64,000 nt of DNA from NCBI GenBank assembly GCA_902533295.1, contig CACALG010000001.1, positions 19,048 to 83,047 on the forward strand, written 5' to 3'. This DNA comes from an uncultured marine group III euryarchaeote. GTDB taxonomy: Archaea; Thermoplasmatota; Poseidoniia; MGIII; CG-Epi1. This document shows positions 4,529 to 60,807 of the stretch, one piece after another. The notes below the pieces were generated by a model. That model worked only from the letters and a program-made list of their open reading frames with translations. It ran no database searches and was not told the origin of the DNA. The position numbers and the translations under genes are program-made. Positions within the stretch are counted from its first letter, which is position 1. Each line of letters starts with the position of its first letter.

Positions 4529-4605
4529 GGGTCCGTGGTCTAGTTGGTTATGACGTCGCCTTGACATGGCGGAGATCCCCGGTTCGAATCCGGGCGGACC
4601 CACCA
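4529..4605 (+). tRNA. tRNA-Val (anticodon GAC at 4563-4565), CCA encoded
   Basis: Cloverleaf read directly: acceptor GGGTCCG/CGGACCC, D-arm GTCT...GAC, anticodon stem TCGCC/GGCGG with loop TTGACAT, T-arm CCCGG-TTCGAAT-CCGGG, discriminator A, CCA. Confidence 0.85.
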
Positions 4606-9239: not shown

Positions 9240-10707
<1,468 letters not shown>

Positions 10708-16248: not shown

Positions 16249-16986
16249 ATGACTGAACAATACCACATGAATTCCCATGAAGGCACATATACTAGGGAAT
16301 TTGAGGCTAAAGTAGAGGCTACATTCCCAGGCATCATCGAACTAGATAAGACTGCATTCTATCCATTGGGAGGGGGCCAACCCTCAGATATTGGAACAAT
16401 AACTTGGAATGAAGGAGATGCAAATGTTACTGATGTGAGGAAAAAAAATCGAATTAGGCACATTGTAGAAGGAGATTTACCAGAAGTTGGAGATTCCATA
16501 AAAGGTAATCTTGACTGGTCACGAAGATATTCACATATGAGAATGCATACTTCTCAACATTTAGTTTCTGCTGTAGTGAATGAAATATATGGTTCAGATA
16601 CCGTAGGAAATCAGATAGGAAATGAGAAGTCTAGAATAGATTTTAAGCCTTTAAAAATAAACCAAACTGAGCTTAATGAAGTAGAGGACAAAGTCAATGA
16701 TTACATATCTAAAGACTTGAAAGTTACTATATCTGAGGAATTACGGTCCAATTTAGAAAATAATCCAGATATCCGTTCAAGTATGTCTAGTGGTCTTTGG
16801 AAAATGTTACCGAAAAGTGTTACAGAATTAAGAGTAATAACCATAGGTGATATCGATGTTTGTCCATGCGCAGGCACTCATGTAAAAAGCTTAAAGGAAA
16901 TAGGTAATGTTTCTTTTATTAAAAGAGATAATAAGGGTTCTGAAAAATTAAGATTAACATATAATCTAGGCGATATCGACTCTTGA
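16249..16986 (+). CDS. alaX: AlaX-M type Ala-tRNA(Ala) editing protein (alanyl-tRNA synthetase editing-domain homolog)
   Basis: HxxxH (HTSQH) and CxxxH (CPCAGTH) zinc motifs of the AlaRS/ThrRS second additional domain; 245 aa. Confidence 0.75.
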   Translation: MTEQYHMNSHEGTYTREFEAKVEATFPGIIELDKTAFYPLGGGQPSDIGTITWNEGDANVTDVRKKNRIRHIVEGDLPEVGDSIKGNLDWSRRYSHMRMHTSQHLVSAVVNEIYGSDTVGNQIGNEKSRIDFKPLKINQTELNEVEDKVNDYISKDLKVTISEELRSNLENNPDIRSSMSSGLWKMLPKSVTELRVITIGDIDVCPCAGTHVKSLKEIGNVSFIKRDNKGSEKLRLTYNLGDIDS

Positions 16987-19900
16987 ATTTGTAAGGCCCT
17001 CTCTGTCCTTTTGTTCATACATCATTTTAATTTCTACAGAAGTTGCAGCATTACTTTTTTGTTGCATTTTTAGTTTAAATTGTACTTCGTTATATGAAGA
17101 TATATCACCCACAATAAACGAGTTATCTGAGAATGAATAATATACATCTGGATCTATACCTACTAATCCTAAGATGCTACTATTGAATTCTGGACTTATT
17201 TTACAACTACTAATAGTTTCAGATGAATAATTACTGAGATTTACGTTCAAAGTTATATTTGTACCGAGTTTTTCGTATGATGATGTAATAACAATTTCTT
17301 TTTCAGTGAAGTAATTGTCAACCATTTCTCTTGTAGATGCAATTGTTTCATCAATTATTGGGTTCAGATAAATTTTTACCTGCTTTACACTCTCGGCATC
17401 TCCATTCCAATTTGCTAGGGTTGGATTAATTGTTTCTATAGCTCTAACGGCATTAATCAGCTTCCCTTTGAACATATTATCTATTTCTCCATAAATTACA
17501 GCAGCAAGATAGGAATGTTCTCCTCTCTGTAGAATGATTTTATTATTACCATAGTCTATGGAACCCAGATCTCCTTCAGTTTGAAATGAGTCTTGAACAA
17601 AATCATTGATTGCTGTGAGCATCCCGCTCATGATATCTGTATCAGTTTTAACTTCAACAGCACTAACATTTCTAAGAAGCCTTCCATCTTTGTAAATTAA
17701 ATATAATTCTTCAACTTTATACTTAGCAATAGGTTTTGATTCAATAATAGATACATTTTCATCTAATTCTTCTTTCCTAGATCGGTATAGTAAAACACCA
17801 CCAAACATTAAGAAAAGAAGACTTATACCTATAGTAGCAGGTAAAATTTCTTTCATTCCAAATTGATCAGTTTCTGTACCTGAGGAACTATATAATTTGA
17901 CTACTTCTTCCATACTTACTGTTTCATTATTAGAATTGCTAATGTGACCGAATTCATCTTCTATTGTGATTCTATAAAAATAATCTCTGTCTGGACTTGG
18001 ATTCTTATGAATCCATTCATAATAACCTTGTTTACAGGAAGTTTCCATACCAACTCCTATTATTTCTTGTGTGAACCATCCACTATCTGAAGCAGGTAAT
18101 TCATCAGCTACCATTTGTACTTTACAAATAGCGGCATCTTCAGGAATAACAAAACCTAAAACCAATTCTGTAGCATTAGTATGCGATATTGCAACATTTG
18201 TAGCTTTCTGAGGGTCCTCTGTAAATACTTCAAAAGTTAAATGAACTCCTGAATAATCAATTTTTATGTTGTTATTACCTGTAATATCCTCAGTTGGTAC
18301 AAAACCTCCATTTGAAGTTCCACCAAATTGAATAGTCTTATTGATTATATCTAAATAATATTCATCTACTAACAATTTATTTTTGTTCATTCCTCTAACT
18401 AATGCTTTTTCATATATTCCATCTAAATCATTATCTACACTAACATTAAACCAATGGATATCATTAATTGCTGGAATATATTTCAAATTGAAACTTTGAT
18501 CATATTGCCCATTGGAACTGAAATATTCAGTAGTATCTAGTGGATTCTCAAGATTGCCTGCAAGATCACGACTTTCAGCATACAGGAAATATCGTGTATT
18601 ATCTTGCAAGTCCTGTAATTTAATTTTATCATCAGAGATATCATGAGGTAATAAATACCAAGTTAATAGATCATTACCTTTCTCTATAGTCTGTATTGCA
18701 ATATATATCTTATAATCTAGATTTAGATTATCTGTATCTATGAAGATTTCTAGATAATCATATCCCCATTTTTGAGGTACATTTGAGAAAGAAATGGTAT
18801 CTACTTTCGATGCATAATTCATTATTATATCATATTCTTCTTTATCCTCACTATTTCCGGCATAATCACTAGCCAGAATTTTAAATGCATAATGACCTAA
18901 TTCATCAAATTCATAAATATAGTGCGTGTCTCCATAAATATTTATTGAATCCAGAGCTGTCCAAGTAACTGAATTAGGATCTAAATTAGCATTTGTAAAA
19001 TTAGAATAGGAAACCTCTAGAGTATTATACGCAATATCATCTGCACTATTCTTCCACGATAAATCTATTTGACTATTGCCTATGAAATAATAATCCTCTT
19101 CAAAATTCAAAAGTTCGGTGGAAGGTATGGATGTATCAATCTTAACTTGATACTCGTAATTATTCTTATTCTCTGTGTTTCCATAAATATCTCTAGCTAA
19201 TGATCTAAACCGATATTCCTTACCATCTTCGCCAGTAAACAATACAATTGATTCTGTAAACGTGCCATATTCTTCCCATTGGGCAAATTTATCATTTACT
19301 ATATACTCAATAATATATTCTTTGAAATCATTATCATCATTCAAAAGAGATATTTGTAACTCAATAGATTCTGAATTAATTAATCCAGTTCCGGGAATTA
19401 TCTCTGATTGTGGTGATGTTGTATCCAATAATGCTAAAAGTGTGTGATTATAGGATAAATTTTTGTATATTTCTACCATAATGTCATTATTATAATAAAT
19501 AATTCTTATGGGATTATAATTAATTTCATTTTGATCGGCAGCTTTGCTAATTACATTTATCATATAATAATCGGAAAAACCATAGTTATCAGTTTGTGAA
19601 TCAACCAGTTTACTTCCAAAAGAATTTTCGATATCAAAACCATGCTCTCTTGAACCAGTGCCCCGCTCATCAGCTATATTAATTTGCAAATTGTAGCGGA
19701 TCAAATAATCAGTATCACGACAATTAAAATCATTGTTTTGTAAAGTAGAATCACTGTCAATTAAGTCCAAACAAAAATCTCCTTCTGAGAATATATTATT
19801 ATCTATTGATATAGTACTATTAAATGAATAAATAGCTTTTTCAAAATCGTTAAAGACATTGTTTAAAATATTTATATCTGATCTATAAGAGCTTACTGAT

Positions 19901-22128
19901 TGTGTATTATTCGTTAATATATTATTTGAAATTCTTCCTTCACTATTATTTGCAGTTATAGCTATTTCCGAAAAATTAATAATATTGTCTTCTAAGTCAA
20001 AATCTGCAAGAACGACAGTTATAGATTCTCTAAAATTCGTTATTATATTATCACTAACTTCGACTTCACCTTCCTGCGAAAAAATACCTACTGCAGCAAC
20101 TTTTTGTAAATAAAGAACATCACATCTATCATGTGTGCATAATCCGGTTACATTATTATTAACTATTTTACTATATGTCCTGTTACTAAGAATACCATAA
20201 TCATTTACATGCAATATATTATCTTCAATAAGTATAGGAAACGTACTATCCTCAAATCCTCCTACTTCGATACCCACTGCCGAACTTAATGTATTATTTT
20301 TAATTATAGTTTTTGGAATATAATATGCATAAATTCCTGATAATTGTGATTCAGGACTCATGTTTGTTTGAACTGTATTATTTGCAATATATCCTTCTTC
20401 AACATCTCTGAACATTATGCCAGCACCATCGATAGAATGAACAAGATTATTTGTTACATGTATATTATCAATTGTAAATGCTGAACCAAACTGAGTATAT
20501 GCAGATATTCCATTATATTTTATATTTTTGAGTGTGTTATTAGCGACAATACCATTTGATATGTCGCCAAAACCATTATCATATATCCAAATTCCTATAG
20601 ACGCATTATCAATATAATTATCCACTATAGTAAAATTTTTGTAGAAATTCCAAACCGTTATTGCTCTTGCTGATGTATTAGTAATATAATTTGAAATTAT
20701 ATGATTATCAGTTCCTACATCATTATATACATTTTCAAAATCAAGCGCTATTGGAAAGTCATTATCATTGATGGTATTATTTATTATATAATTTCCAGAA
20801 GGTGATATACCTCCTTCAGGCCAACCCCAAAGTCCTATAGCTTGCCATCCTATTTCAAAATTATTATTTCTTATAGTATTATTGTTCTGAAATGAATTAA
20901 TAAAAATAGCAATTGTGTAATTTTCAAAGTAATTATTTTCGATTAAATGACCTCCACCATAATATTCATCTGTATCAAAATCCCAGAACCAGAAAATCAT
21001 ACAACTATGCCCCCAATAGGGTTGTTTAGACCCGCAATTTATGAATGTATTATTACTGTATTCATTTCTATTTCCTGCACGATCCATAAGATTGTGCCAA
21101 TATACGCCAGAAACATTGAATATGTTGCGGCTAATTATATTGTCATCTGTAGCTTGTAGAGACATATCATGTATTGTATTATTTAGAAATTGGTTATCAA
21201 TTATTGTATGATTACTGCCTTGAGTTATAGTAAGCGTACCTCTGCCTCCCTGTCCATTATCCTTGTAAATATAATCTCTAAAGATGTTACCACTAATTAG
21301 ATTATAATTCCCATAGGAAATAGTTACACCTAATGTACCGTTAATGAAAGTATTATTTTGTATTAAGGCGTTCTCTCCTGAGACAAACAAGTCATAGAAT
21401 ATGTAACTATTATAAATCGTGTTATTAATAAATCTAAAATTATCAGTATAAGCACTAATTATTCCAATCATATCAAATGTGGAATTAGTTATGTAAGATC
21501 CAGCTCCAGTAAATCTTAATGCCTTTACATACTCAAAATCAGAATTCTCAATAATTACCCTAGTATTAGGAATTCCTGAGCCTGGCTGATTATTTACTAA
21601 TCTGCCTACTTGAACAGTATAATCTAACCTCTCTGTGTAATTCCCTTTACCAATTATATTAGATTTAATAACGGAACGATCATTACTAGTTGTCGGATTC
21701 AAATCATAATCTGTAACAATTAGTACAGAATTCTCATTTAAATCAAGACAATTAGCAGTTATTTCACTATTCTTTTGAATAGAATCAAGTATTAATTCAG
21801 AATTAATTATGGTCAGTGTACTGTATAATGATATATTGTCACCATGTGAATCTTGTTCATGAAATACTGTAGAATTAATCCATCTGGTTTCTCCTCTAAT
21901 TTCAATGAAACCTTTTGATGATAGAGAAACGTTTTCAAGTTTCAAAGTCTTACCAAAATTAACGACAATATCTTTGACTGAGACGTCCTCATCCCAAACA
22001 TGCGTGTCTTGAGTGATAATCCAATCCTGACCCTCTTGGGGTGCATTTCCATTTGAACCTGCTGAAGCATTTCCAGTACTGATTACTATCGCAGTAATTG
22101 CGATTAAAAGAAATGCTGTTTTCTTCAT
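16966..22128 (-). CDS. Giant (1720 aa) secreted surface protein: signal peptide, right-handed parallel beta-helix (PbH1/NosD-like) repeat region, beta-sandwich domains, single TM, ~280-aa cytoplasmic domain
   Basis: Signal peptide MKKTAFLLIAITAIVISTGNASA. Many N-N-T/I-x-N beta-helix rungs (IQNNTFINGT, ISGNIF, IIDNQFLNNT, ITNSTFD...). TM segment ATIGISLLFLMFGGVLLY near aa 1400. The cytoplasmic domain is homologous to ORF 1..477. Confidence 0.8.
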   Translation of the reverse strand: MKKTAFLLIAITAIVISTGNASAGSNGNAPQEGQDWIITQDTHVWDEDVSVKDIVVNFGKTLKLENVSLSSKGFIEIRGETRWINSTVFHEQDSHGDNISLYSTLTIINSELILDSIQKNSEITANCLDLNENSVLIVTDYDLNPTTSNDRSVIKSNIIGKGNYTERLDYTVQVGRLVNNQPGSGIPNTRVIIENSDFEYVKALRFTGAGSYITNSTFDMIGIISAYTDNFRFINNTIYNSYIFYDLFVSGENALIQNNTFINGTLGVTISYGNYNLISGNIFRDYIYKDNGQGGRGTLTITQGSNHTIIDNQFLNNTIHDMSLQATDDNIISRNIFNVSGVYWHNLMDRAGNRNEYSNNTFINCGSKQPYWGHSCMIFWFWDFDTDEYYGGGHLIENNYFENYTIAIFINSFQNNNTIRNNNFEIGWQAIGLWGWPEGGISPSGNYIINNTINDNDFPIALDFENVYNDVGTDNHIISNYITNTSARAITVWNFYKNFTIVDNYIDNASIGIWIYDNGFGDISNGIVANNTLKNIKYNGISAYTQFGSAFTIDNIHVTNNLVHSIDGAGIMFRDVEEGYIANNTVQTNMSPESQLSGIYAYYIPKTIIKNNTLSSAVGIEVGGFEDSTFPILIEDNILHVNDYGILSNRTYSKIVNNNVTGLCTHDRCDVLYLQKVAAVGIFSQEGEVEVSDNIITNFRESITVVLADFDLEDNIINFSEIAITANNSEGRISNNILTNNTQSVSSYRSDINILNNVFNDFEKAIYSFNSTISIDNNIFSEGDFCLDLIDSDSTLQNNDFNCRDTDYLIRYNLQINIADERGTGSREHGFDIENSFGSKLVDSQTDNYGFSDYYMINVISKAADQNEINYNPIRIIYYNNDIMVEIYKNLSYNHTLLALLDTTSPQSEIIPGTGLINSESIELQISLLNDDNDFKEYIIEYIVNDKFAQWEEYGTFTESIVLFTGEDGKEYRFRSLARDIYGNTENKNNYEYQVKIDTSIPSTELLNFEEDYYFIGNSQIDLSWKNSADDIAYNTLEVSYSNFTNANLDPNSVTWTALDSINIYGDTHYIYEFDELGHYAFKILASDYAGNSEDKEEYDIIMNYASKVDTISFSNVPQKWGYDYLEIFIDTDNLNLDYKIYIAIQTIEKGNDLLTWYLLPHDISDDKIKLQDLQDNTRYFLYAESRDLAGNLENPLDTTEYFSSNGQYDQSFNLKYIPAINDIHWFNVSVDNDLDGIYEKALVRGMNKNKLLVDEYYLDIINKTIQFGGTSNGGFVPTEDITGNNNIKIDYSGVHLTFEVFTEDPQKATNVAISHTNATELVLGFVIPEDAAICKVQMVADELPASDSGWFTQEIIGVGMETSCKQGYYEWIHKNPSPDRDYFYRITIEDEFGHISNSNNETVSMEEVVKLYSSSGTETDQFGMKEILPATIGISLLFLMFGGVLLYRSRKEELDENVSIIESKPIAKYKVEELYLIYKDGRLLRNVSAVEVKTDTDIMSGMLTAINDFVQDSFQTEGDLGSIDYGNNKIILQRGEHSYLAAVIYGEIDNMFKGKLINAVRAIETINPTLANWNGDAESVKQVKIYLNPIIDETIASTREMVDNYFTEKEIVITSSYEKLGTNITLNVNLSNYSSETISSCKISPEFNSSILGLVGIDPDVYYSFSDNSFIVGDISSYNEVQFKLKMQQKSNAATSVEIKMMYEQKDREGLTNSRVDIA

Positions 22129-47972: not shown

Positions 47973-48706
47973 CCTACAAAACCACCGATAAGGGCATATT
48001 AATTACAGACGAAAGATTAGCTGCACAAATATACAATAAAGGAAAAACAGGAACTACCCAGGAAAAAGGTAACCTGTTATTAAGGCCTGAAGAAGCATTA
48101 TATTGCGATTATCGAGGTGATTTTGAGCTTTCAGATAACGAGAGAAAGAAATTCATGTCAAATAATTATACAGTTTACAGAGATCTAAAAGAACGTGGTT
48201 TAATAGTAAAAATTGATGATTTTGGCCTAAGAGTTTATGACCGAAAAACTGAAACTAAAGGACAAGCATCTGCAATTGTTTTGCCTAAAAATTTCGACGA
48301 AAAAATAGATTTTAGCAATATTTTTAATGAACTGGAAAAGGGACTTGAGAGAAGAGTCCAAATTGGAATAATAGATTCTGACAATGATGTAGTATATTAT
48401 GTGATTAAAGGCATCAAATGGGATGAAACTAAACTAAAAGAAGGTCAAAAAAGTACAATTACAGACAAGGAAGTTCAAGAACTACTCGAGAAAGGATACC
48501 AAATAAATTCTGGATTAAAATTTGGAACACATTACAGAGTCTACAACTATGAGTCAAATCATGCCCCTTGGCTAATACACGTCATAAAAGAAGGAATTAA
48601 TTGGTTAGATATTGCAAGAATGGTACGTGTAGGTCATGGTGTCAATAAGACAATAGTTTTAGCATACAAACAGAAATGGCTTAGTATTGAATGGATTAAA
48701 CCTTGA
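47960..48706 (+). CDS. endA: tRNA-splicing endonuclease EndA. The ORF track gives 48155..48706, but the N-terminal domain is encoded in frame upstream from ~47960 with no ATG/GTG/TTG.
   Basis: Catalytic domain SGLKFGTHYRVY...NHAPWLIHV...VGHGVNKT (Tyr/His/Lys triad). Upstream in-frame peptide ...KGILITDERLAAQIYNKGKTG...LLLRPEEALYCDYRGDFEL matches the EndA N-domain (HYG..G, LSLVEALYL). Confidence 0.7.
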   Translation, partial: GEGLTYKTTDKGILITDERLAAQIYNKGKTGTTQEKGNLLLRPEEALYCDYRGDFELSDNERKKFMSNNYTVYRDLKERGLIVKIDDFGLRVYDRKTETKGQASAIVLPKNFDEKIDFSNIFNELEKGLERRVQIGIIDSDNDVVYYVIKGIKWDETKLKEGQKSTITDKEVQELLEKGYQINSGLKFGTHYRVYNYESNHAPWLIHVIKEGINWLDIARMVRVGHGVNKTIVLAYKQKWLSIEWIKP

Positions 48707-49416
48707 TAGTTGGACTCTACACCAAAGATTTTGCTTTACTTAACAATATCACAAATAAGATAAAAGATCAAAAAATTAAACTTCGCCACCTAGATAATCT
48801 TTCAAATTTAGGAAAGGATTTGCAAATAATTATTTCTAAAAGAAGAATTAAGAATTGTAAAATACCTCAAATACAACCTGAAAATTTGGACGTTCTAGAA
48901 TTGAAATTAAGATGTAAACTATATACCTGTTCTGGTTTAGTAATAGGAATAGATCCTGGTGGCATGATTGGCCTATCTGCAATAGGTACTGGTAGAATAT
49001 TGTTCATGAATACTTATGATAATCCTAATGATTTAGCCATAATTGTTAAATCTATATATTTAGAAATAGGGCTAAAAGCGATTAAGATTGGATTAGGGTC
49101 TCCACCTGAGAGAACAAGAATATTAGACGTACTCAAAGAATATTCAAGTATCATTCAATTAGTCAATGAGCAAAATAGTGGAAGTGGGAGTCATACTGAA
49201 GCTGCAACAATAATTGCTTTGCGCCAAGGTAAATATAATTTAGATGAAAAATACAGACCTAAGGATGGAGAAATATCATGGATTCAGAAGGAATCAAGAA
49301 GATTATCAAAAGGATTAGTTACAATAGACAAAGAACTTGCTCATGAAATACTAATTGGGGAAAAGACTATGGATGAAGCCATAAAAATTTACACAAAAAA
49401 AATGAAACTTCGGTAA
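48703..49416 (+). CDS. Hypothetical protein with an RNase H-like (YqgF/RuvC-type) N-terminal motif; start overlaps endA stop by 4 nt
   Basis: VIGIDPGGMIGLSAIG start-of-fold motif; TTG start; translationally coupled to endA. Confidence 0.35.
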   Translation: MIVGLYTKDFALLNNITNKIKDQKIKLRHLDNLSNLGKDLQIIISKRRIKNCKIPQIQPENLDVLELKLRCKLYTCSGLVIGIDPGGMIGLSAIGTGRILFMNTYDNPNDLAIIVKSIYLEIGLKAIKIGLGSPPERTRILDVLKEYSSIIQLVNEQNSGSGSHTEAATIIALRQGKYNLDEKYRPKDGEISWIQKESRRLSKGLVTIDKELAHEILIGEKTMDEAIKIYTKKMKLR

Positions 49417-49472
49417 ATTAGGCACTTGATTGAGAATACTTATATAGACAAATAATAACAAGGAGATACGAT

Positions 49473-50205
49473 ATGGCATTACTAGAAGTTAAAGAGCTAA
49501 AAAGAGGCTTTGGATCCAAGACCTTTGGCACTCGAATTGAGGTTCTTAAGGGCGTTAATTTAGAAATAAAAAAGGGTGAACTAGTTGCGTTAATGGGACC
49601 GTCTGGATGTGGAAAATCTACCTTATTGAATATAATTGGAGGATTGCTAAAAGGAGATTCCGGAAAAATAAGTATTACTTCTCAAGAAAATAATTATAAT
49701 TATGGAACTAAGAATCCTAATCGTGTTGTAGATGTAAGAAGAAATGGTGTAGGATGGATATTTCAAGATTTTCACTTAATCGAACATTTAACTGCTATAG
49801 ACAACGTTGCATTATCACTTGAAATTTCAGGATTAACGGAGAGAGAAGCTGAGGAAAAAGCTAGATTAGCACTTACTAAAGTTGGTCTCAGGGATAGGAT
49901 AGACTTTGGTGTAGAGCAACTTTCAGGAGGTCAACGTCAACGAGTTGCTGTTGCAAGAGCTATTGCTGGTTCTAGACCGCTACTATTAGCAGACGAGCCA
50001 ACGGGAAATCTAGATATTGAGAGCGGAAATGATGTCATAAAATTGTTTAAGATGCTTACAAAATCTGAAAAAACCAATCTCAGTACTAATGGTTACACAT
50101 GATCCTAATCTAGCCAGTCAAGCCGATCGTATGTTATTGTTAAAAGACGGACTTGTGGCTGCGAGTGATATAAAATCTGCATGGGGAATAGGAGGAAAGA
50201 AATGA
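49473..50205 (+). pseudogene. ABC transporter ATP-binding protein (MacB/LolD-like) interrupted by a +1 frameshift at an A6 run (50068-50073)
   Basis: Walker A GPSGCGKST, signature LSGGQRQRVAVARA, Walker B LLADEPTGNLD in the ORF 49473..50102. The H-loop and C-terminus (ISVLMVTHDPNLASQADRMLLLKDG) are in the +1 frame from ~50075 to 50205. Deleting one A restores KSEKPISVLMVTHD. Confidence 0.55.
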
Positions 50206-51734
50206 AGAAAAGAATAATAAAATGGAAAAATAAATTCCGAGATCTTCCTGATAATTTAAGAATAGCTGGCCTTAGTTCATGGCGTGACAAGGAAAGAGGA
50301 TTAGCTGTATTCGCAGGAGTTTTCCTCGCAAGTTTAGTAATTACTTTAGTATTAGTATACGGAGTTGGGCTTTCACAAGCTTTCTTAGAAGAATCATTAG
50401 AACAAACAGTTTTTGATTCAAAAATAGAATTTAAAAATGCTCCAGCTCAGGGTTCTACTGGATGGACAAACAACACTACTATTTTACAAAATATGTGTGA
50501 TGAAGTTACACTAAAGGAAGAATTTAGTGATTGCACAGTAATATTGGGTAAAAGTGGGATACATAGTGAGTTGAGCTTTTCTAATGATGCTGCATTTTAC
50601 GCATCTCCACTCTTTTTGAAGGAAATCGAATCTTCTGATAATGACAGAGACTGGGATCAAGAGGATTTATGGGATTATGAATACACGACAGGACCTCCTG
50701 TTGTAAACATAAGAGCTATTTCATTTTTGGGCCCTGAAGCTTTTGATGGTGAAATCTCAGAACGCTTATCTAAAAAAACATAATTTATGAAATGGGCGAA
50801 TGGAAAACTCATGAAGAGGTCCATGCTGAAAGAGGCATATACATTCCATTAGATATTGCATCTACTACTGGTGCGGAAGTAGGAGATAAAATAGAACATC
50901 TAACATTTACTTACACTTCTGAAAGAAGCCTTCCAGGAGGGATGTCTGAAGAAGATTGTGCTGGTGAGATAATTGAAGGTGAAGAATTCAGGCTTATGTA
51001 TTGCCAAATTCCCCTAACTCTTGATAATGTCACAATTCTAGGAATATATGAACCATGGCCACAAGGTAATCCAGTTCTTGCTGCTAATCCTATATACACA
51101 ACATGGACTATACTTGATGAAAAGCAGCAAACTACTCTGATTGATAATGACCATGTATACCTTGGTGTAACTGTAGATCGCACTCTATTACCAACATCAT
51201 CTATCTCAGCTGCAGAAGATTGGTTAGAAATTGTTGCAAATGATATGCAAAAAACAAACTTACGATGATGGAAATGTAAAGATATTCTATGTAGATATAA
51301 TAAGTAGCAGTATTTTGTGGCTTGAATTTTTCCTTGGATTCGTTCAAGTATTCGATTATATTTTAATGATACCTGTGGTTATTCTTTCCCTATACTTACT
51401 AATTTATGGACTAGAACTTTCATTAGAACAAAGAAGAAGAGAAATAAGTATTCATAGAGCCATTGGTGCAACAGCAGAAAAACTTAAGGGAATGGTTCTC
51501 TTTGAACTGTTTATAATCTCTACAGTTGCTTGGTTAGGTGGATATTTGCTTGCCCTTATTGCAGTTCCTTTTGTCCTATCTATTGTTGGTTTTATGGAAT
51601 TTGAGGCATTGGAAATCGATGTTAATCCAAGTCTGAGCTTTGGCGCTACATTCTTCACCATTCTTACCACCCTGGGATTAGCTTTAATTTTCGGTAATTC
51701 TCGCACGAAAAGCTTCCTAGAGATGGAAAATTGA
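50202..51734 (+). pseudogene. MacB/FtsX-family ABC permease (~510 aa if contiguous) split into three ORFs by frame changes at A7 (50772-50778) and A6 (51249-51254)
   Basis: N-terminal TM (LAVFAGVFLASLVITLVLVYG) and an extracytoplasmic domain spread over ORFs 50181..50783 and 50792..51268. FtsX domain RRREISIHRAIGATAEKL plus TMs in ORF 51231..51734. Adding one A at 50772 and removing one A at 51249 gives a continuous frame. Confidence 0.5.
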
Positions 51735-51780
51735 TGAGGGGGTCAGAAAGACAAAGGAGACAGGTAAACCAAGAGTTTGG

Positions 51781-53778
51781 TTGCATTGGACTATGTTTGG
51801 CATAGGAGCCATAGGTGCAATAGATACTTGGCAAGAATTGAATACAACCGGTGAAGGAATAATAACCAACTGGTTTGTAGGTGGCTTAATTAATATTTTT
51901 GGACCTTTCTTATTATGGATAGGTGGGGCTTTGTTGCTTTCAAGATTAGGTGCAGCCGGACCTTCTATAATGCTTAAATTCTTCAGAAAAACCCCATTGC
52001 TTTCTGATGTAAAGAGAGGTCTTGAATCGACTGGAACAAGTGAATCTACAGGTAGACTATCAACAATTATGCTATTGACATTATCAATAGTAACTCTCGC
52101 AGCCGTACAAGGATATACAGGTTCTCTTGTCGATGAAAGAACAGCGGATTTAGATATTGGTAGCGACATCAAAGTTTATGCTGTTGAACCAATGACTTCA
52201 ATTGAAGTAGAACAAGCAATCACTAATATCAGCTCTAAAGACCTTACTGTAAATGCAGTAAATGTACCGATTATTCCCTTGATATCTGAGGATGGGACGG
52301 ACGTTAATGCATATGTACTAATGAATGAAAGTACCGAGATACTCAAATGGTTTCCTCAAGCCGTTCCTGGAAAAGATATTTCTGAAGCAATGATTGCATA
52401 CAAAGATGGAGGATTCACAGCAGGCGAAGATATAGCATTTACATTGGATTTATGGGGTTCTGGCCGTTACGGTGATTCAGAAGACATATTACTAGATAAA
52501 AGCAATAAGAACTCAGAAAATTTGAATTTAACATGGGAAGAAACTATTGTTACCTTTACAGGTGAGGAAAATGAAGAACTAGATCCAATGATGGCGATAG
52601 TGTTGTATACTGGGTTCATGGAAAAGAATTGGTCAAATATTGACCTATCTAACCAGGATATAAGCAGCCGGAATTTTACACAAACTGACTTTTCGAATAC
52701 AAATTTATCTGGTGCCAATTTAGCTAATTCAGATTTATCAGAATCGATATTCTTCAACGTTGATCTAAGGGGTGCTAATCTAACTGGTGCAAATCTAAAC
52801 AATACTGTATTTGTGATACAACCACAAAACATTGTCGGTGCAAACTTTACAGGTGCAAATCTGAGAGGGGCCTTTGAATATACTGGATTTGTTAATTTGT
52901 CAAACGAGGAAATAAGTGGTGCTATTTGCCCTGATGGAACTATACAAACTAATGATAATAATTGTTCCACTGGATTTAGTACAATACCTCCCCCCTTACT
53001 GGCACCTTTCTTTATTCCTGCAACAGTTGAATTTGAAGTGATTCCACATGAAACAACTATACGATACATTGGAGTTCATGAATTCATTCCTGGTGTTGCT
53101 ACAAATGACATGAATAATTATTTAGTAATAAATGAGCTAGCATATAGAGAATTACGAGGAAATCAATTCGTTGATAGTGAAACTTCAACTACTTGGATTG
53201 TAGATATAGATGGGCTCAATAATGATGAATTACAAGTATTGGCCCTGCTAATAGCTGCAGATTCTCGTTTTGAAAGTGCCGATGATTGGGAAACATCACA
53301 TGAAAATGTTGAGAGAAATGGAGGAATTATATTCGGAACACAGGGTCTTTTCACACTACAATATCTTGTTGCAAGTGTTGCTGCAATAGCCTCATCATTT
53401 GTTTTCTTATCATTAGTTTTAAATCAAAAGAAGAAAGAATTGGCTATTTTACAAGCAATAGGAGCTAGTCCAAATCAGATTATCAGACTCGTTTTATTCG
53501 AGATTCTATCTATAGTATTTGTTTCTATGATTTTAGGAGTTATACTCGGTATTGGTTTGGCTTTATCCTTTAACGGACTGTTTGATATCTTTGGATTCTT
53601 ATTCCAGTTGTTTTCTGGAACTGGAGAATCATCAGTAATTACAAGAGTACTACAGTGGCCTTGGTGGGTTATAATCAAGGTCACATTAGGTGTACTATCT
53701 GTGGTTGTCTTGGCTTTAATTATGACCACCAGAAGGGCATTACGTGCCGATTTAGCCGTTGTTTTAAAGGGAGAATAA
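51781..53778 (+). CDS. FtsX-family ABC permease with a large extracytoplasmic domain containing pentapeptide repeats
   Basis: C-terminal FtsX domain KKELAILQAIGASPNQIIRLVLFEILSIVF...TTRRALRADLAVVLKGE. About 20 A(N/D)LxG-type pentapeptide units at aa ~285-380 (DLSNQDISSRNFTQTDFSNTNLSGANLANSDLSESIFFNVDLRGANLTGANLNNTVF...ANFTGANLRGA). Confidence 0.65.
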   Translation: MHWTMFGIGAIGAIDTWQELNTTGEGIITNWFVGGLINIFGPFLLWIGGALLLSRLGAAGPSIMLKFFRKTPLLSDVKRGLESTGTSESTGRLSTIMLLTLSIVTLAAVQGYTGSLVDERTADLDIGSDIKVYAVEPMTSIEVEQAITNISSKDLTVNAVNVPIIPLISEDGTDVNAYVLMNESTEILKWFPQAVPGKDISEAMIAYKDGGFTAGEDIAFTLDLWGSGRYGDSEDILLDKSNKNSENLNLTWEETIVTFTGEENEELDPMMAIVLYTGFMEKNWSNIDLSNQDISSRNFTQTDFSNTNLSGANLANSDLSESIFFNVDLRGANLTGANLNNTVFVIQPQNIVGANFTGANLRGAFEYTGFVNLSNEEISGAICPDGTIQTNDNNCSTGFSTIPPPLLAPFFIPATVEFEVIPHETTIRYIGVHEFIPGVATNDMNNYLVINELAYRELRGNQFVDSETSTTWIVDIDGLNNDELQVLALLIAADSRFESADDWETSHENVERNGGIIFGTQGLFTLQYLVASVAAIASSFVFLSLVLNQKKKELAILQAIGASPNQIIRLVLFEILSIVFVSMILGVILGIGLALSFNGLFDIFGFLFQLFSGTGESSVITRVLQWPWWVIIKVTLGVLSVVVLALIMTTRRALRADLAVVLKGE

Positions 53779-53780
53779 AT

Positions 53781-54872
53781 ATGAGTGAAGAACTATTTGA
53801 ACATACAACGGGACAAGGAAAAGAAAATGAAGAATCAAAGCAGCAAATGGAAGCTGCTCAATTCTCAGAGAATTTATATGACAACAAAATAGACAAAAAT
53901 GCTATCTTACAAGCTATAGCATTATATCATGTTTATCAATCTACTGCTGAAGATGGAAATGTTGTTGCTTTGAGAGGATTAAATGTAACTGTTAAGAAAG
54001 GAGAAGCTGTAGCCATTGTTGGTCCTTCTGGTTCTGGTAAATCAACCTTATTGAAATGTCTTGGAGTTTTAATGAAGCCCTCAGCAGGAGGGGTTATCCT
54101 AAACGGAACGCCAACTACACGTAAGACTGGACTTGAACTAGTAAAAATGAGACAAGAAACAGTTTCATTTATTTTCCAAGAAGGGAATCTATTGCCTGAT
54201 CTAAATGCCCTCGATAACGTAGCTCAACCACTACGCCACAGAGATGTAAGCCCATATGAAGCAAAAGAAAAAGCACGTGAATTATTAATTGAATTAGGCT
54301 TAGAAGAAAGAATATATGGATTTCCTGAAACACTTTCAGGTGGTGAACAGCAAAGGGTCGCAATTGCACGGGCGTTAGTAACAAATCCAAAACTGATTCT
54401 AGCCGATGAACCTACGGGGGCACTAGATCCTATAACCAGTAGAGAAGTACTAGAATTATTTGGAAAATTACACAAGGAAAGAGGTGTAGCATTCTTAATT
54501 GTAACACATAGTGCAGAAGTAGCAGCTTTTTGTGATCGTAGCTTAGAATTACGTGATGGCAGATTTGTCGCCGAACATGGAACAAACTTAGAAATAGAAG
54601 ATTTAGAAGAATCTCGTGAACTAATAATTGATGATTTAGGAACATTATCATTTCCTCCTGAAGTATTGATGAGAATGGGTGGTTCTGGACGATTTGAAGT
54701 TGAGGAAGCTGCTGATGGAAAAATTACCTTGGTTGCTGCTGAGAGAAAAGAATCTATGATTAAAGGAAAGCAAAAACTGGCTGAGAAATGTCCTGCTTGT
54801 GAGTACAAATACAAGGACAATAGCCAAATGTGTCCTGAATGTGGTTCAAGCCGACCAATGATTAAATCATAA
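53781..54872 (+). CDS. ABC transporter ATP-binding protein with a C-terminal extension ending in a zinc ribbon. Start taken at ATG after the permease stop; ORF track starts 53655 in the same frame.
   Basis: Walker A GPSGSGKST, LSGGEQQRVAIARA, ILADEPTGALD, VTHS. C-terminal CPACEYKYKDNSQMCPECG. GGGAG precedes ATG 53781. Confidence 0.7.
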   Translation: MSEELFEHTTGQGKENEESKQQMEAAQFSENLYDNKIDKNAILQAIALYHVYQSTAEDGNVVALRGLNVTVKKGEAVAIVGPSGSGKSTLLKCLGVLMKPSAGGVILNGTPTTRKTGLELVKMRQETVSFIFQEGNLLPDLNALDNVAQPLRHRDVSPYEAKEKARELLIELGLEERIYGFPETLSGGEQQRVAIARALVTNPKLILADEPTGALDPITSREVLELFGKLHKERGVAFLIVTHSAEVAAFCDRSLELRDGRFVAEHGTNLEIEDLEESRELIIDDLGTLSFPPEVLMRMGGSGRFEVEEAADGKITLVAAERKESMIKGKQKLAEKCPACEYKYKDNSQMCPECGSSRPMIKS

Positions 54873-56708: not shown

Positions 56709-57587
56709 ATGAGCTGTGTAGATGACTTATCCAAAATTGGCATGAACGATTTGAACTATACTTGTGCAACAGAAATAGCAAGTATGGGGCCTGTTGCAGC
56801 TTTACTTACTATACTCATTGGAATCCCTCTTGTAAGGCTGGTTTTGAGGTACCTAAAGAATATATTTGAGAAGTATGATTACATCGATGAAGGAATAGAA
56901 AATTTCCTTTTTAGAGCTACCAGCGTAGCTCTTTGGGCTGTTATTTTCTTGACAGCCGCAAATGAACTAGGAATAAATGTTACAGGAATTGTAGCAGCTC
57001 TTGGTATTGTTGGTTTAGCAATGGCTTTTGCAGCTCAAGATACTATAGAGAATATTATTGCAGGTATATTCCTAATGGTAGATAGACCATTCCGTGAAGG
57101 TGATCGAATATTATTACCGAAGAAAATTGGTAGTTTGTATTCAAGCTGGGGTGATGTAACTGAAGTTGGCCTTAGAACAACAAGAGTGCGCTCCACTGAT
57201 GGAGTTTTGCTTACAATACCAAACAAAAATTTGACAAAAGACACCATTGCTAATTTCAACCATAAAGATGACCGAAATCTCCGTGTAAGGATTAGATTAG
57301 GACTAGTGCCAACATGGGAAAATGTATCCAAAGGTGAAGAAATTGTAGAAAATATTGCTAAAAGTCATGAGGACATTTGCCAAGATAAACCAAAACCACC
57401 ACAGATAGTTTTGAGAGATTTTGGAGATCAAGAAGTAATCATGGAAATTAGATACTATGTCCCTAATGCACCTCTAATGAGAAGTACAAAATCATATTTT
57501 GTTAAAGAAATTCTAAAACAATTTGAAGAACAAGATGTTAGATTGGCATACCCAACTAGACTAATTATGAAGGAAGATATTGAATAA
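56709..57587 (+). CDS. mscS: Small-conductance mechanosensitive channel (MscS family)
   Basis: TM3-beta region IIAGIFLMVDRPFREGDRI; 292 aa. Confidence 0.75.
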   Translation: MSCVDDLSKIGMNDLNYTCATEIASMGPVAALLTILIGIPLVRLVLRYLKNIFEKYDYIDEGIENFLFRATSVALWAVIFLTAANELGINVTGIVAALGIVGLAMAFAAQDTIENIIAGIFLMVDRPFREGDRILLPKKIGSLYSSWGDVTEVGLRTTRVRSTDGVLLTIPNKNLTKDTIANFNHKDDRNLRVRIRLGLVPTWENVSKGEEIVENIAKSHEDICQDKPKPPQIVLRDFGDQEVIMEIRYYVPNAPLMRSTKSYFVKEILKQFEEQDVRLAYPTRLIMKEDIE

Positions 57588-58631
57588 TTAAGGATTCAAA
57601 CCCTTTTCAAGTTCTTCTATTTCCTTACGCAGAGAATCTAAATCCTTATTGTCTTGCGTAGTTGTGGTAGGTGCTTCCGTTGTAGCTAACTGATGCTTAT
57701 ATGGATTGAACCAATTGACAAAATGATTTGCTGCCACTTTCAAAACAGTACTAACTTTGGCCATACCGCCATTGGTTTTAGATATATTGATATCACATGA
57801 CAGCACACCACAGTCAGCATTTGCATTATTAATTTCTGAATATGGGATAGTAACACCTGCACCACCACCGGCAAAAATTAGCCTATCCTGTAAAGCAGCC
57901 ATTGCATTTACAGGAATACCATCAATCTGTGTGTTAAGTTGTGCCTGGACAAGTGCATATACTGTATCCCCGGATTGCATCATACCTATAAGTGGAAAAA
58001 TCTGGGAATCATTATTAGTTACATAAAAACCATCTGGCAACTGTTTGAGCATTTCTCTAAAAAAGGCAAAATCGGCATTGTAAGGTACTCCTGAGATACC
58101 CTGAACCTGATTAGAAACTGGAGGTGTAACTGGAGGTGTAACTGGAGGTGCAGCTGGAGGTGTAGCTGGAGGTGTGCTAATATTAGCATCTTGATTTGTA
58201 GCTAACTGATGCTTATATGGATTGAACCAATTGACAAAATGATTTGCTGCCACTTTCAAAACAGTACTAACTTTGGCCATACCGCCATTAGTTTTAGATA
58301 TATTGATATCACAGGACATTACGCCACAGTCAGCATGTGCATTATTAATTTCTGAATAAGGGATAGTAACACCTGCACCACCACCGGCAAAAATTAGCCT
58401 GTCTTGTAAAGCAGCCATTGTATTTACAGGAATACCATCAATCTGTGTGTTAAGTTGTGCTGGCACTAGTGCATACACTGTGTCTCCAGGCTGCATCATA
58501 CTCATAAGTGGAAAAATCTGAGAATCATTAGTCGTTACATGAAAACCATCTGGCAACTGATTTAGCATTTGTCTAAAAAGAGCCAAATCAGCATTGTAAG
58601 GCACTCCTATTATATTACTCATAAATATCAA
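57588..58631 (-). CDS. Hypothetical protein built from two near-identical ~150-aa domains joined by a (T/A)PP(V/A)-repeat linker, with a short C-terminal coiled-coil
   Basis: Residues 8-160 and 178-330 are ~90% identical (GVPYNAD.A.FR.ML.QLPDGF.VT.NDSQIFPL...GGMAKVSTVLKVAANHFVNWFNPYKHQLAT). Linker PPATPPAAPPVTPPVTPPV. Confidence 0.5.
   Translation of the reverse strand: MIFMSNIIGVPYNADLALFRQMLNQLPDGFHVTTNDSQIFPLMSMMQPGDTVYALVPAQLNTQIDGIPVNTMAALQDRLIFAGGGAGVTIPYSEINNAHADCGVMSCDINISKTNGGMAKVSTVLKVAANHFVNWFNPYKHQLATNQDANISTPPATPPAAPPVTPPVTPPVSNQVQGISGVPYNADFAFFREMLKQLPDGFYVTNNDSQIFPLIGMMQSGDTVYALVQAQLNTQIDGIPVNAMAALQDRLIFAGGGAGVTIPYSEINNANADCGVLSCDINISKTNGGMAKVSTVLKVAANHFVNWFNPYKHQLATTEAPTTTTQDNKDLDSLRKEIEELEKGLNP
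57590..58625. repeat. Intragenic direct tandem duplication, two ~515-bp copies with high nucleotide identity
   Basis: For example, gtagctaactgatgcttatatggattgaaccaattgacaaaatgatttgctgccactttcaaaacagtactaactttggccataccgccatt occurs at ~57682 and ~58197. Confidence 0.8.
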
Positions 58632-58657
58632 AAGGTTAGCATATTATTTATTATTTA

Positions 58658-59113
58658 TTATTCATCTAGACTGGCTTCAAGTTCTTCGATTTCTTTCTGC
58701 AAACGCAACTTTTCGGCTGCTTTCACTTCTTCATCTTTTTTCATTAAGTATTCCTTTCTCTTTTGCAAAAGTTCTTCTCGTTCAGCTTGTTCTACTTTTG
58801 CCCTTTCCCGTTCTTGAGCTTCAGCGATAATTCTTGTTTCCTGAAACTGCCTTGCCATTTCCGCATGTGCCTCTAAATTCTCCTTATCCTGTATATTTTT
58901 AGCCCAAGCTACAAAAACCAACATTATTATGAAACTGATACAACAAATAACACTATCTTCCCCAAATTCTTCATCTTGCTTTTCACACTCTGGTGTCCAA
59001 TCAACGTCACAAGAATCATCAGGAGACTCTGAACCAAAAAAGAAAACACATGCGATGAGAAAAAATGTTATAGCAAGAAAATTCAACAGATTCTTCAAAA
59101 TTCCAGAAGCCAA
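58658..59113 (-). CDS. Small membrane protein (2 TM) with a C-terminal coiled-coil
   Basis: TM segments LNFLAITFFLIACVFFF and ISFIIMLVFVAWA; C-terminal ...LRLQKEIEELEASLDE echoes ...LRKEIEELEKGLNP of the upstream gene. Confidence 0.45.
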   Translation of the reverse strand: MASGILKNLLNFLAITFFLIACVFFFGSESPDDSCDVDWTPECEKQDEEFGEDSVICCISFIIMLVFVAWAKNIQDKENLEAHAEMARQFQETRIIAEAQERERAKVEQAEREELLQKRKEYLMKKDEEVKAAEKLRLQKEIEELEASLDE

Positions 59114-59161
59114 ATAATCACCCTATAACAACAAGAAAAACACTATTTAAAAAAATTTACC

Positions 59162-60100
59162 TTATTTAGAAAGCTTTTCCATCCTTTCTTCATATATCTT
59201 ATCATTAATCAATCCTTCAGCATGCAATTCTTTAAGTTGATCAATCTTAACTTGCAAAGAACCACTTGAAGCTTCTTTCTCAATATTTGATTTACTTACA
59301 ACACTATCTTTGATAATTGTGTCTCTGTCATCTACATAAGTTGTTGTTGTATCTCTATCATCTATATAATTTCCTTGAACAATTGTTGTAGGTGGTCCTG
59401 CACTCACTTGCATCTTACTCTTATTAACACGACGTATATCCTCTACCCTATCTAATTCTCTATACAAATCAAGTGCATGTTCATAATCTAATTGTCTCTC
59501 ATACTTCCTAGCTAATTCTAACTTCTTCGCTACCTTTCTATCTGCCTCCTCTCGCCTCTTTTTATCCTTTAATTCATTCTTAAGCTCAGCCTTCTTAGCT
59601 CTGAGTTTTTCCAATTCGGGATCAACAGATTTACTTGATGGTTCAACTTTTTCTCTAGGGTTGTTAAACTTTTGACTCGTATTTGGGATTTCATTTTTAA
59701 ATTCCTGATTAGTAGTGTCGTGAACATTTACAGGACACAGACCAAACAGAACTTGGGCATCTGTTTGCGATACAAAAGTAGAGGCTGCCATAAACTGATA
59801 TTTTTCTTGAGCATATCCATTGTCATAACTGAAATTAAAGAATTGCTTACCATTTCCAGTAATCCATTTTGTTCGCATTTTGATTAATTCAAAGGCCATT
59901 TGATTAGTGGCATCTCCACAGACCAAAAGTCTCGTATTAGTCAAAAAAATATTTGCCTTACTGTATATTGTATTTTTACCCAAATATGAATCTGTTGTAG
60001 TAATATTGTAAAATTTTTGAATTGTTACATTGGCTCCATTTCCTCCAGAAGACCAAACAATATGCTCATTAGCCTCAAGCAAAGGATTCGTATTAGGCAT
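59162..60100 (-). CDS. Hypothetical protein: N-terminal PH-like/bPH-type domain, Lys/Glu-rich coiled-coil, C-terminal SHOCT-like motif
   Basis: C-terminal LKELHAEGLINDKIYEERMEKLSK resembles SHOCT (L..L...G.IT..E...++..LL); N-terminal ANIFLTNTRLLVCGD. Confidence 0.4.
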   Translation of the reverse strand: MPNTNPLLEANEHIVWSSGGNGANVTIQKFYNITTTDSYLGKNTIYSKANIFLTNTRLLVCGDATNQMAFELIKMRTKWITGNGKQFFNFSYDNGYAQEKYQFMAASTFVSQTDAQVLFGLCPVNVHDTTNQEFKNEIPNTSQKFNNPREKVEPSSKSVDPELEKLRAKKAELKNELKDKKRREEADRKVAKKLELARKYERQLDYEHALDLYRELDRVEDIRRVNKSKMQVSAGPPTTIVQGNYIDDRDTTTTYVDDRDTIIKDSVVSKSNIEKEASSGSLQVKIDQLKELHAEGLINDKIYEERMEKLSK

Positions 60101-60190
60101 ATCTAATTACTATAAGTGGAGTTTTAGAAACTTTCTCCAAAAGATTCATTCTATACACATAAATATAATAAATCCCTCACAGATAGAGCT

Positions 60191-60807
60191 ATGAGGAAAA
60201 AAATGTCATTTGAAGTACCTGATTTACCGTACGACTACAGCGCTCTTGAACCATACATAGATGAAGAAACTATGCGAATACATCATGACAAACATCATGC
60301 TGCATATGTTAACATGTTGAATGGTGCAGTTGAAGCTGCAGGAATAAAGGGAAAATCTGTAAAAGAATTAATCACAGACTTGGATTCTGTACCTGAAGCT
60401 CAAAGAGGAGCTGTTAGAAACCATGGTGGTGGGCACTTTAATCACTCACTATTTTGGGAAGTCATGGGTCCAGTTAATGGTGAAATGAGTTCCGATCTGA
60501 ACACAGCACTTTTGGAAGCATTTGGATCATTAGATGATTTTAAAGCTAAATTTCAGAACGCAGGAATGACACGCTTTGGCTCTGGATGGGCCTGGTTATG
60601 TTCAAATAATGGAAAATTGGAAATATGTTCTACTGCAAATCAAGATAATCCAATTATGGGTAACAAATACGGTGGAACTGATGGAGAGATACCAATCCTA
60701 GGAATTGATGTTTGGGAACATGCATATTATCTGAATTATCAAAATTTGAGGGCAGATTACATTTCAGCTTTCTTCAATGTTATTAATTGGGCTGAAGTCT
60801 CAAGGCG

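Follow-up and report, generated by a model that had tools for sequence, protein, structure and literature searches.

Five surplus adenines interrupt a putative ABC transporter operon in one assembly of a Marine Group III archaeon

In the contingency loci of Neisseria, Haemophilus and Campylobacter, reading frame is set by one long tract, usually at least 8 nt, which is polymorphic among close isolates and typically lies in a surface or restriction gene. Among close strains, a recoding site or contingency tract is either conserved or polymorphic, and tracts need roughly 8-9 nt before phase variation or slippage by RNA polymerase reaches an appreciable level. In the AT-rich endosymbionts Buchnera and Blochmannia, frameshifts in poly(A) tracts are reportedly rescued by transcriptional slippage; these tracts are said to be ~9 or more A's long, with the frameshifted state conserved between strains or species. 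Here we analyze a locus with shorter runs, in a 64,000-nucleotide stretch of DNA (the window) from a Marine Group III archaeon with an AT-rich genome (~35% GC). As written, the locus holds an ABC ATPase truncated to 209 aa, lacking its H-loop, and a permease in four ORF fragments. After repair, it encodes a MacB/LolD-type ABC ATPase of 243 aa, a fused double-FtsX permease of 1190 aa and a second ATPase, which is intact as written. The features, in window coordinates, are as follows.

49473-50204, + strand: ABC ATPase 1, with a MacB/LolD/FtsE/DevA-like nucleotide-binding domain, 243 aa after deletion of one A
50068-50073, + strand: frame break 1, A6; A5 or an interrupted run in the alignment of L001, L008 and L009 (+1 A)
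50202-53778, + strand: fused double-FtsX permease (type VII ABC, MacB-like), 1190 aa with five surplus A's removed
50772-50778, + strand: frame break 2, A7 vs. A5 in the three closest orthologs (+2 A)
51249-51254, + strand: frame break 3, A6 vs. A5 in relatives (+1 A)
51727-51730, + strand: frame break 4, A4 vs. A3 in relatives (+1 A), which makes a false stop at 51732-51734
53781-54872, + strand: ABC ATPase 2, LolD/MacB-like with a C-terminal zinc-ribbon tail, 363 aa, the intact third gene of the operon

Five surplus A's at four runs thus break ATPase 1 once and the permease three times within 1.66 kb. The first-pass annotation had placed three breaks at the two A6 runs and the A7 run, and these positions are exact. 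Its account of ATPase 1, which loses the H-loop and C-terminus at the first A6, also holds: with one A deleted, ...KSEK runs on into PISVLMVTHD... and the protein regains its 243 aa. Removing one A at site 3, as had been proposed, yields NDMQKQTYDDGNVK. Site 2 had been read as one missing A, but the three closest orthologs have A5 there, and the change is therefore A5 to A7, a gain of two A's rather than a loss of one. The permease had also been taken to end at 51734; that stop is created by the fourth break, which had been missed. Deleting one A at site 4 yields ...SFLEMEIDEGVRKTKE... and joins the 665-aa ORF at 51781-53778, so the permease is a single protein of 1190 aa. Aligned with the three closest orthologs, the coding strand of the window has gained A's at each of the four sites (+1, +2, +1 and +1), and apart from these insertions the broken genes contain no stops or deletions.

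The repaired proteins have the features expected of an ABC transporter. ATPase 1 matches PF00005 over residues 25-177 (E = 6.5e-35), and direct reading of the repaired protein finds the motifs GPSGCGKS, LSGGQ, LLLADEPT and VTHD; Walker A, LSGGQ, Walker B/D-loop and H-loop come together in one polypeptide only when one A is deleted at 50068-50073. A GGAGA Shine-Dalgarno sequence lies upstream of the gene. ATPase 2 matches PF00005 (E = 2.8e-34) and, more weakly, the zinc-ribbon profile PF12773 (DZR, E = 8.6e-4). The best NCBIfam matches are DevA, MacB, FtsE and LolD for ATPase 1 and LolD and MacB for ATPase 2, none of them reaching its equivalog cut-off: at best, DevA scores 201 (cut-off 295.8), MacB 197.5 (966), FtsE 186.6 (264.9) and LolD 184 to 210.8 (307.8). 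On these profile scores, the operon ATPases would belong to the superfamily only and to no specific equivalog. Our definition of an FtsX-domain permease was a protein whose FtsX domain (PF02687) supplies three C-terminal transmembrane helices, with one more transmembrane helix and an extracytoplasmic domain ahead of it. In the repaired 1190/1191-aa protein, PF02687 is found in two stretches (E = 1.6e-23), with the transmembrane topology inferred from hydrophobic stretches, and PF00805 is matched as well (E = 5e-12), its pentapeptide repeats being located in the second extracytoplasmic domain. The C-terminal FtsX domain gave weak matches to LolC, LolF and YtrF chains.

Ten genome loci at 73-96% amino acid identity all have an intact ATPase and a single permease ORF of 1190-1212 aa, with the same ATPase 2 gene downstream of the permease in 10/10 loci of the genome collection. 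When metagenomes are included, an intact ATPase and a single permease ORF of 1190-1219 aa are present in every related locus that covers the genes, with the exception of L033, a 57% homolog with a single in-frame stop. Full-length permease homologs in databases are ~1030-1230 aa. The conservation extends to the break sites themselves. At site 2, the three closest orthologs read TCT AAA AAC/AAT ATA, encoding LSKNIIY, and LSKNIIYEMGEWK is found in all listed cluster members that reach the site, except P0202 and P0205, whose contigs end just after LSK. At site 3, all listed full-length relatives have NDMQKQTY or a variant with one residue changed in its first two residues. At site 4, relatives read ATG GAA ATT GAT GAG, encoding MEIDEG, with LEMEIDEGV in all listed full-length relatives. 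No tract-length polymorphism was seen among the relatives. In Marine Group III/II archaea, the locus is a three-gene ABC transporter operon that is conserved and normally intact. In protein collection look-ups, the truncated products (209, 193, 158, 164 and 661 aa) were recorded from only one NCBI contig, of 96,659 bp; neither the exact repaired permease nor the exact repaired ATPase 1 was found in the protein collection.

Contigs of the same species cover the first break. Two independent Illumina contigs from Tara Oceans, L035 (ERR594337 assembly, 98.8% identical to the window) and L037 (SAMEA2622737 scaffold, 99.1%), have A5 at site 1 and read CTGAAAAACC; the extra A at site 1 is their sole indel relative to the window. 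Their ATPase 1 is identical to the repaired window protein at 242/243 residues, as is P0230, in which the difference is N74S. Two further Tara Illumina scaffolds, L034 and L038, match the window strain at 99.8-99.95% identity, with no indels relative to the window. Tara Oceans run ERR594337 and samples SAMEA2622733 and SAMEA2622737 contain this population at 99-99.95% identity. This same-species evidence covers site 1, while sites 2-4 are judged from orthologs at ~92% nucleotide identity or less, the scans of genomes and metagenomes having given nothing above ~92% there. A 468-aa protein query across sites 2-4 returned distant or partial matches only, and the cluster listings for the permease and ATPase 2 include no same-species member.

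The first-pass annotation had suggested a decaying transporter operon, and the substitutions contradict decay of any long standing: purifying selection has been as strong as in intact orthologs. On the window branch, the permease has 14 nonsynonymous vs. 77 synonymous substitutions and ATPase 1 has 5 vs. 42, both strongly purifying and at a ratio comparable to, or lower than, that of the intact ortholog lineages. All 11 window-unique replacements are conservative and are evenly distributed over the 'broken' and 'unbroken' parts. The relaxed selection, radical replacements and further lesions expected of a decaying pseudogene were therefore not found. Relative to the same-species contigs, ATPase 1 has 5 synonymous differences and 1 nonsynonymous difference, rejecting neutrality over the whole within-species branch (p ~0.002).

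The breaks are tightly clustered. Of the A/T runs of at least 5 bases, 3/11 are broken in 50068-51730 vs. 0/338 elsewhere (Fisher p = 2.3e-5), and the probability that four uniformly placed events would fall within 1663 bp of 64 kb is ~7e-5. No further homopolymer-repairable breaks or split domains were found in the 64-kb window: a systematic +/-1 homopolymer repair scan flagged only gene junctions beyond the locus, and Pfam searches of adjacent ORF pairs found the domains full-length. One pair, 23593/23943, was considered as a broken gene and rejected, being two genes, a DUF5611 protein and a kinase. The intact 5-kb ORFs previously described as neighbors do exist (10990-16197 and 16966-22128), but they lie ~30 kb away and do not adjoin the locus. 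A sliding identity profile showed 50.5-52 kb to be unusually conserved across lineages, with no clear chimeric junction. The 16S rRNA, used as an internal homopolymer check, had no suspicious insertions in the part of the alignment displayed.

What, then, are the surplus A's? We infer that their cause is technical rather than mutational, and our preferred explanation, with moderate confidence, is that homopolymers were over-counted only within one ~1.7-kb part of this assembly. Such over-counts would arise in the consensus over a short stretch, probably one with poor coverage, poor polishing or a merge, and the organism itself would encode a normal 243-aa ATPase and 1190-aa permease. The lesions occur only in mononucleotide runs and are private to one assembly, with the same-species check bearing on site 1 only; one kind of lesion, in one direction and on one strand, is the signature of a homopolymer-calling bias. 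The tight clustering and the clean other 62 kb fit a local problem of coverage, polishing or merging better than a genome-wide process. Several observations sit awkwardly with an over-count. If the contig was assembled on a de Bruijn graph from Illumina reads alone, finding four homopolymer errors within 1.7 kb would be highly unusual and a real haplotype would be likelier, and the Tara scaffold matches are compatible with an Illumina-derived MAG. Neither the +2 (A5 to A7) nor an error in an A3 run is among the commonest homopolymer miscalls, and clustering in one operon is also expected of a real gene that is already dead. In the literature we found nothing usable on merge-induced frameshifts in MAG pipelines. 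Local sequencing error, one of the explanations offered at first pass, survives, as does a very recent private lesion. The latter, a genuine and very young strain-private inactivation by replication slippage in four A-runs, is a serious possibility, although we consider it somewhat doubtful. The runs would have expanded after the transporter became dispensable in this cell line, or at the same time, with the first insertion killing the operon and the rest following neutrally. All lesions lie in A-runs, which are mutational hot spots when a genome is AT-rich; the lesions cluster within one functional unit, as expected of a dead gene, and the clean remaining contig argues against a generally error-prone assembly. 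Given the Tara matches, the assembly may derive from short reads, where errors of this kind are rare, and the in-frame stop of the distant homolog L033 means that databases do contain defective alleles of this transporter. Against this, selection was not relaxed on the window branch, and four or five independent indels without substitutional damage would, by our estimate, need an unusually high slippage rate. The 5:1 ratio of synonymous to nonsynonymous differences within the species limits any neutral period to at most a small fraction of the ~1% divergence. Every event is an insertion, and indel spectra of prokaryotes are usually deletion-biased. One event falls in a run of only three A's, and the C-terminal 60% of the operon has no lesion at all. 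The site-1 insertion is absent from two same-species contigs, and the truncated products appear in no independent assembly.

Functional explanations have far less in their favor. A reversible phase-variation switch, or recoding by transcriptional slippage or by +1/-1 ribosomal frameshifting on AAA-A or A-AAA-AAA that would leave a fraction of the product full length, is very unlikely. The sequence context offers it something: at sites 1 and 3, tRNA-Lys could re-pair in +1 on AAA-A, site 2 (T AAA AAA C) permits a -1 slip giving LSKKNIIY, and the flanking intact reading frames show no decay. Yet no relative is shifted at any site, no ortholog needs a frameshift, and site 1 is A5 in the same-species contigs; the three closest orthologs keep their reading frame across all four sites, so a polymorphic tract is not what is seen. 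Nor is there a single long tract, the four simultaneous breaks lying in runs of 6, 7, 6 and 4 nt, too short for appreciable slippage. Each working transporter would require four separate events, and full-length yields would therefore multiply to near zero. Re-pairing is poor at site 4 (GAA-A), and the 70 nt downstream of each site contain no stable RNA structure relative to shuffles (z = -0.37, +0.42, +0.45 and -1.41), leaving frameshifting without a stimulatory structure. The phase-variation-like switch raised at first pass is thus unsupported, given four breaks, short tracts, no polymorphism and no RNA structure. It likewise seems to us very unlikely that the surplus A's are real while the operon is still expressed, or silenced in a reversible way. 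If it were true, this archaeon would tolerate or exploit slippage of RNA polymerase or the ribosome at several short A-runs, and recoding or an off-switch spread over several sites is not known from archaea. Alternatively, the ATPase and the permease could be split by nature, every fragment being a gene with a start of its own, and ATG codons do occur in frame or nearby after the breaks (50792, 51240 and 51793). This we regard as scarcely credible. Natural splitting, which the first-pass annotation had named as one outcome that would overturn its interpretation, is refuted at the level of sequence by orthologs that are always single ORFs. The breaks also fall inside domains, severing the H-loop, cutting the first extracytoplasmic domain and cutting the link after the first FtsX domain. 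True starts here have GGAGG or GGAGA 7-10 nt upstream, which the fragment 'starts' lack, and the ATG at 51240 does not lie in the frame that the orthologs use.

The finding matters mainly as quality control. An annotation that takes the locus at face value contains five spurious gene fragments, which have already spread from this contig into protein collections, and misses a conserved permease of 1190 aa. It would also lead to too many pseudogenes being counted, or too much transporter loss being claimed, for this Marine Group III genome. Were the lesions real, they would represent an ordinary, very young, strain-private transporter loss of little wider consequence.

Among known phenomena, the locus resembles the homopolymer miscalls of flow-based, long-read or overlap-merge consensus sequences, in which run lengths change in one direction, privately to an assembly and without substitution damage; the lesion at site 1 is likewise missing from same-species Illumina contigs. 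Unlike typical miscalls, the lesions here all fall within 1.7 kb rather than being scattered along the contig, and they include one +2 and one in a three-base run. With Buchnera and Blochmannia it shares an AT-rich genome and frameshifts in A-runs of otherwise well-conserved genes, but here the runs have 4-7 A's, the shifted state is seen in one assembly only, and rescue would have to work at four sites at once. As in contingency loci, the length of a homopolymer in the coding region sets the reading frame; unlike them, there are four short tracts, none polymorphic among related loci. The biology of the repaired operon is a question separate from the frameshifts. Its architecture is common across Marine Group II/III archaea, so the window is no exception in having it. 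It resembles type VII ABC transporters (MacB, LolCDE, FtsEX, DevCA and YbbAP/BceAB-like): the operon ATPases score best against DevA, MacB, FtsE, LolD and YbbA models, and the permease has two PF02687 domains, each after a large extracytoplasmic domain. It differs from them in that the permease is a fused, pseudo-dimeric polypeptide of ~1190 aa lying between two different ATPase genes, with pentapeptide repeats in its second extracytoplasmic domain and a zinc-ribbon tail on ATPase 2.

In the sequence as it stands, the first gene is cut short at 209 aa, and positions 50181-53778 contain four ORFs in different frames (200, 158, 167 and 665 aa). Three-frame translation showed conserved protein sequence running on in another frame past each ORF boundary. 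With five surplus A's removed, there are three co-directional genes at 49473-54872, all with a ribosome-binding site (GGAGG or GGAGA) upstream:

start 49473, + strand, ABC ATPase 1, 243 aa after repair; PF00005, E = 6.5e-35, with Walker A, LSGGQ, Walker B and the H-loop VTHD
50202-53778, + strand, permease, a single 1190-aa protein after repair; two FtsX domains, PF02687, E = 1.6e-23
53781-54872, + strand, ABC ATPase 2, intact, with a zinc-ribbon tail, directly after the permease

The operon is a member of the type VII (MacB/FtsX) ABC superfamily. Using NCBIfam, both ATPases fell into the DevA, MacB, FtsE, LolD, YbbA group, with all equivalog cut-offs missed, and assignment to any specific functional family failed at the cut-offs. 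The permease carries pentapeptide repeats in the second of its external domains, and its last FtsX domain weakly matches the LolC, LolF and YtrF structures.

The first-pass annotation, made from the sequence alone, had located three breaks exactly (sites 1-3 below). An additional, fourth shift is bounded to 51721-51731 by a frame-1 stop at 51718-51720, with an A4 as the sole run inside, and the permease end previously proposed (frame-0 stop 51732-51734) is an artefact of this break. Alignment to the three closest orthologs, from loci L001, L008 and L009, revealed surplus A's at 4/4 sites:

site 1, 50068-50073, + strand: A6 in the window, A5 or an interrupted run in the orthologs
site 2, 50772-50778, + strand: A7 in the window, A5 in the orthologs
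site 3, 51249-51254, + strand: A6 in the window, A5 in the orthologs
site 4, 51727-51730, + strand: A4 in the window, A3 in the orthologs

Site 2 is therefore a +2 insertion; the single added A suggested earlier would yield LSKKNIIY, where relatives have LSKNIIY. All five surplus bases, within 1663 bp, are A's on the coding strand inside A-runs. Over 14 kb aligned to L001, other indels that are not a multiple of three occur in intergenic spacers only.

For relatives we used ten loci from a one-genome-per-species scan and 23 from a metagenome scan, all Marine Group III / Poseidoniia-type Thermoplasmatota, with 57–96% amino acid identity to the repaired permease. Every locus spanning the genes encodes an intact ATPase of ~240–280 aa, a single permease ORF of 1190–1219 aa, and then a second ATPase; the ancestral state is therefore intact and fused. 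The exception among relatives, L033 (JGI Ga0066376_10042285, 2967 bp), is a distant permease homolog (57% identity) lacking the pentapeptide-repeat insert, with a reading frame that is continuous except for one in-frame stop (…TVLN*SEQITL…). Full-length database homologs of the permease are single proteins of ~1030–1230 aa, widespread across Marine Group II and III; the fused double-FtsX design is a common one in this group of archaea, not a special property of the window. Naturally split genes, which the first pass had proposed looking for among orthologs, were rejected on these unsplit loci. The fragment 'starts' at 50792, 51240 and 51793 lack the ribosome-binding motif found at real starts here. 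Several partial public proteins in the permease N-terminal cluster (ENA; P0199, P0203, P0206) start or end in peptides such as CLLYTSPSPRDS, DLSLIHI or MYKRQ, which look like translated library-adapter sequence remaining at contig ends; if so, they would mean contamination of the public protein collection.

The breaks are clustered. Of 349 A/T runs of at least 5 bases in the window, 11 lie in 50068-51730, and 3 of these 11 are broken vs. none of 338 elsewhere (Fisher p = 2.3e-5; span statistic, p ~ 7e-5). A plus-or-minus-one repair scan of all runs of at least 4 bases in the window found no further candidate beyond ordinary gene junctions, and suspicious neighbouring ORF pairs proved to be distinct, complete domains. 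The gene map has no gaps apart from the 16S rRNA, near which no 23S or 5S gene was found within the window. Other features are:

4529-4605, + strand, tRNA-Val(GAC)
9240-10707, - strand, complete archaeal 16S rRNA gene (Rfam RF01959, 1504 bits, model positions 1-1478)
10990-16197, - strand, 1735-aa protein with BNR/sialidase-like repeats, a CARDB domain and a proline-rich repeated tail
16966-22128, - strand, 1720-aa protein with beta-helix/NosD and cohesin domains
57588-58631, 58658-59113 and 59162-60100, - strand, three genes with no confident Pfam hit

Both giant proteins are of secreted or surface type; the tail of the first consists of recurring units of ~16–20 residues (e.g. PAAPPAPVPEQPPVPE), and GC falls to ~29–30% over the second. 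The last three genes occupy ~2.6 kb (57575-60200) missing from syntenic loci L001, L008, L004, L005 and L016; this is an insertion, specific to the strain or species, that separates a mechanosensitive-channel gene from the conserved gene that follows. Within it, a 300-nt direct repeat (57680-57979 and 58196-58495, 93% identity, spacing 516 nt) is an internal duplication of the 347-aa ORF 57588-58631. A Tara scaffold, L038, spans the left edge of the insertion and stops at the first repeat copy.

On the window branch the permease has 14 nonsynonymous and 77 synonymous changes and ATPase 1 has 5 and 42; the intact L001 lineage has 22.5 and 72.5 in the permease, 15 and 27 in ATPase 1. Pairwise dN/dS is 0.07–0.12, equal to flanking housekeeping genes. 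All 11 window-unique replacements are conservative (R>K, D>E, V>I and similar), and window-unique changes are evenly distributed: the first 507, 'broken' codons have 5 nonsynonymous and 19 synonymous, the remainder 6 and 27. Within the species, the ATPase has 1 nonsynonymous and 5 synonymous differences; ~8.5 nonsynonymous would be expected were the whole branch neutral (p ~ 0.002), and ~4.8 were half of it neutral (p ~ 0.05). By these counts the genes have not evolved like pseudogenes, which speaks against the decaying operon suggested in the first pass; the breaks are therefore evolutionarily instantaneous.

ATPase 1 has a hypervariable in-frame segment (49646-49700, residues ~58–76), in which L001 and L011 have a net 32 extra codons, L009 and L013 are intermediate, and L008 has the window's length. 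The closest relative is L008 for ATPase 1 and L001 for the permease, which hints at recombination inside the operon. Positions 50500-52000 (end of the first external domain and first FtsX domain of the permease) retain 90–97% nucleotide identity even with lineages that stand at 80–87% elsewhere (L013, L028); this stretch is either unusually constrained or exchanged between lineages.

A search with the repaired ATPase returned P0230, an intact 243-aa protein encoded on Tara Oceans contig L035 (ERR594337). Aligned to window 48601-50362, this contig shows 98.8% identity, 20 mismatches and a single gap, which falls at the extra A at 50068. Tara scaffold L037 (sample SAMEA2622737), independent of the first, covers 48641-50138 at 99.1% identity and has the identical single gap. 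Both ATPases differ from the repaired version by one residue, N74S, in a stretch of variable length among relatives. Two more Tara scaffolds, L034 (99.76% identity) and L038 (99.95%), show no indels against the window. No same-species contig covering sites 2-4 was found by protein search or in cluster listings, and the fragment products are on record from one unannotated NCBI contig (96,659 bp) only.

On balance we favor, by a modest preference, a local consensus error, a technical over-count of A's. Such an error would fit five events sharing one base and one direction, one of them in a run of just three A's, the absence of the site-1 insertion from two same-species assemblies, and truncated products that no independent assembly supports; it would also avoid four to five indels building up without substitutional damage. 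Counting against it, the remaining contig is clean, and because Illumina Tara data contain this population, the contig may come from short reads, in which such errors seldom occur. A real, young lesion private to the strain is a credible though tentative alternative, and each of these two readings accounts for both the clustering and the absence of decay. Recoding or phase variation at the A-runs, the switch raised in the first pass, is very improbable: four events would be required per working transporter, the tracts are just 4–7 nt, relatives are all in frame with no counterpart, and no downstream structure was detected at sites 1-4 (z = -0.37, 0.42, 0.45 and -1.41).

Nothing at the locus is novel; what is useful is the corrected gene model, with an ATPase of 243 aa and a permease of 1190 aa, and a warning about this part of the assembly. 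The frame breaks look like homopolymer miscalls of the usual sort; they lack what defines a contingency locus, a programmed frameshift, a slippage-rescued poly(A) gene or a decaying pseudogene.
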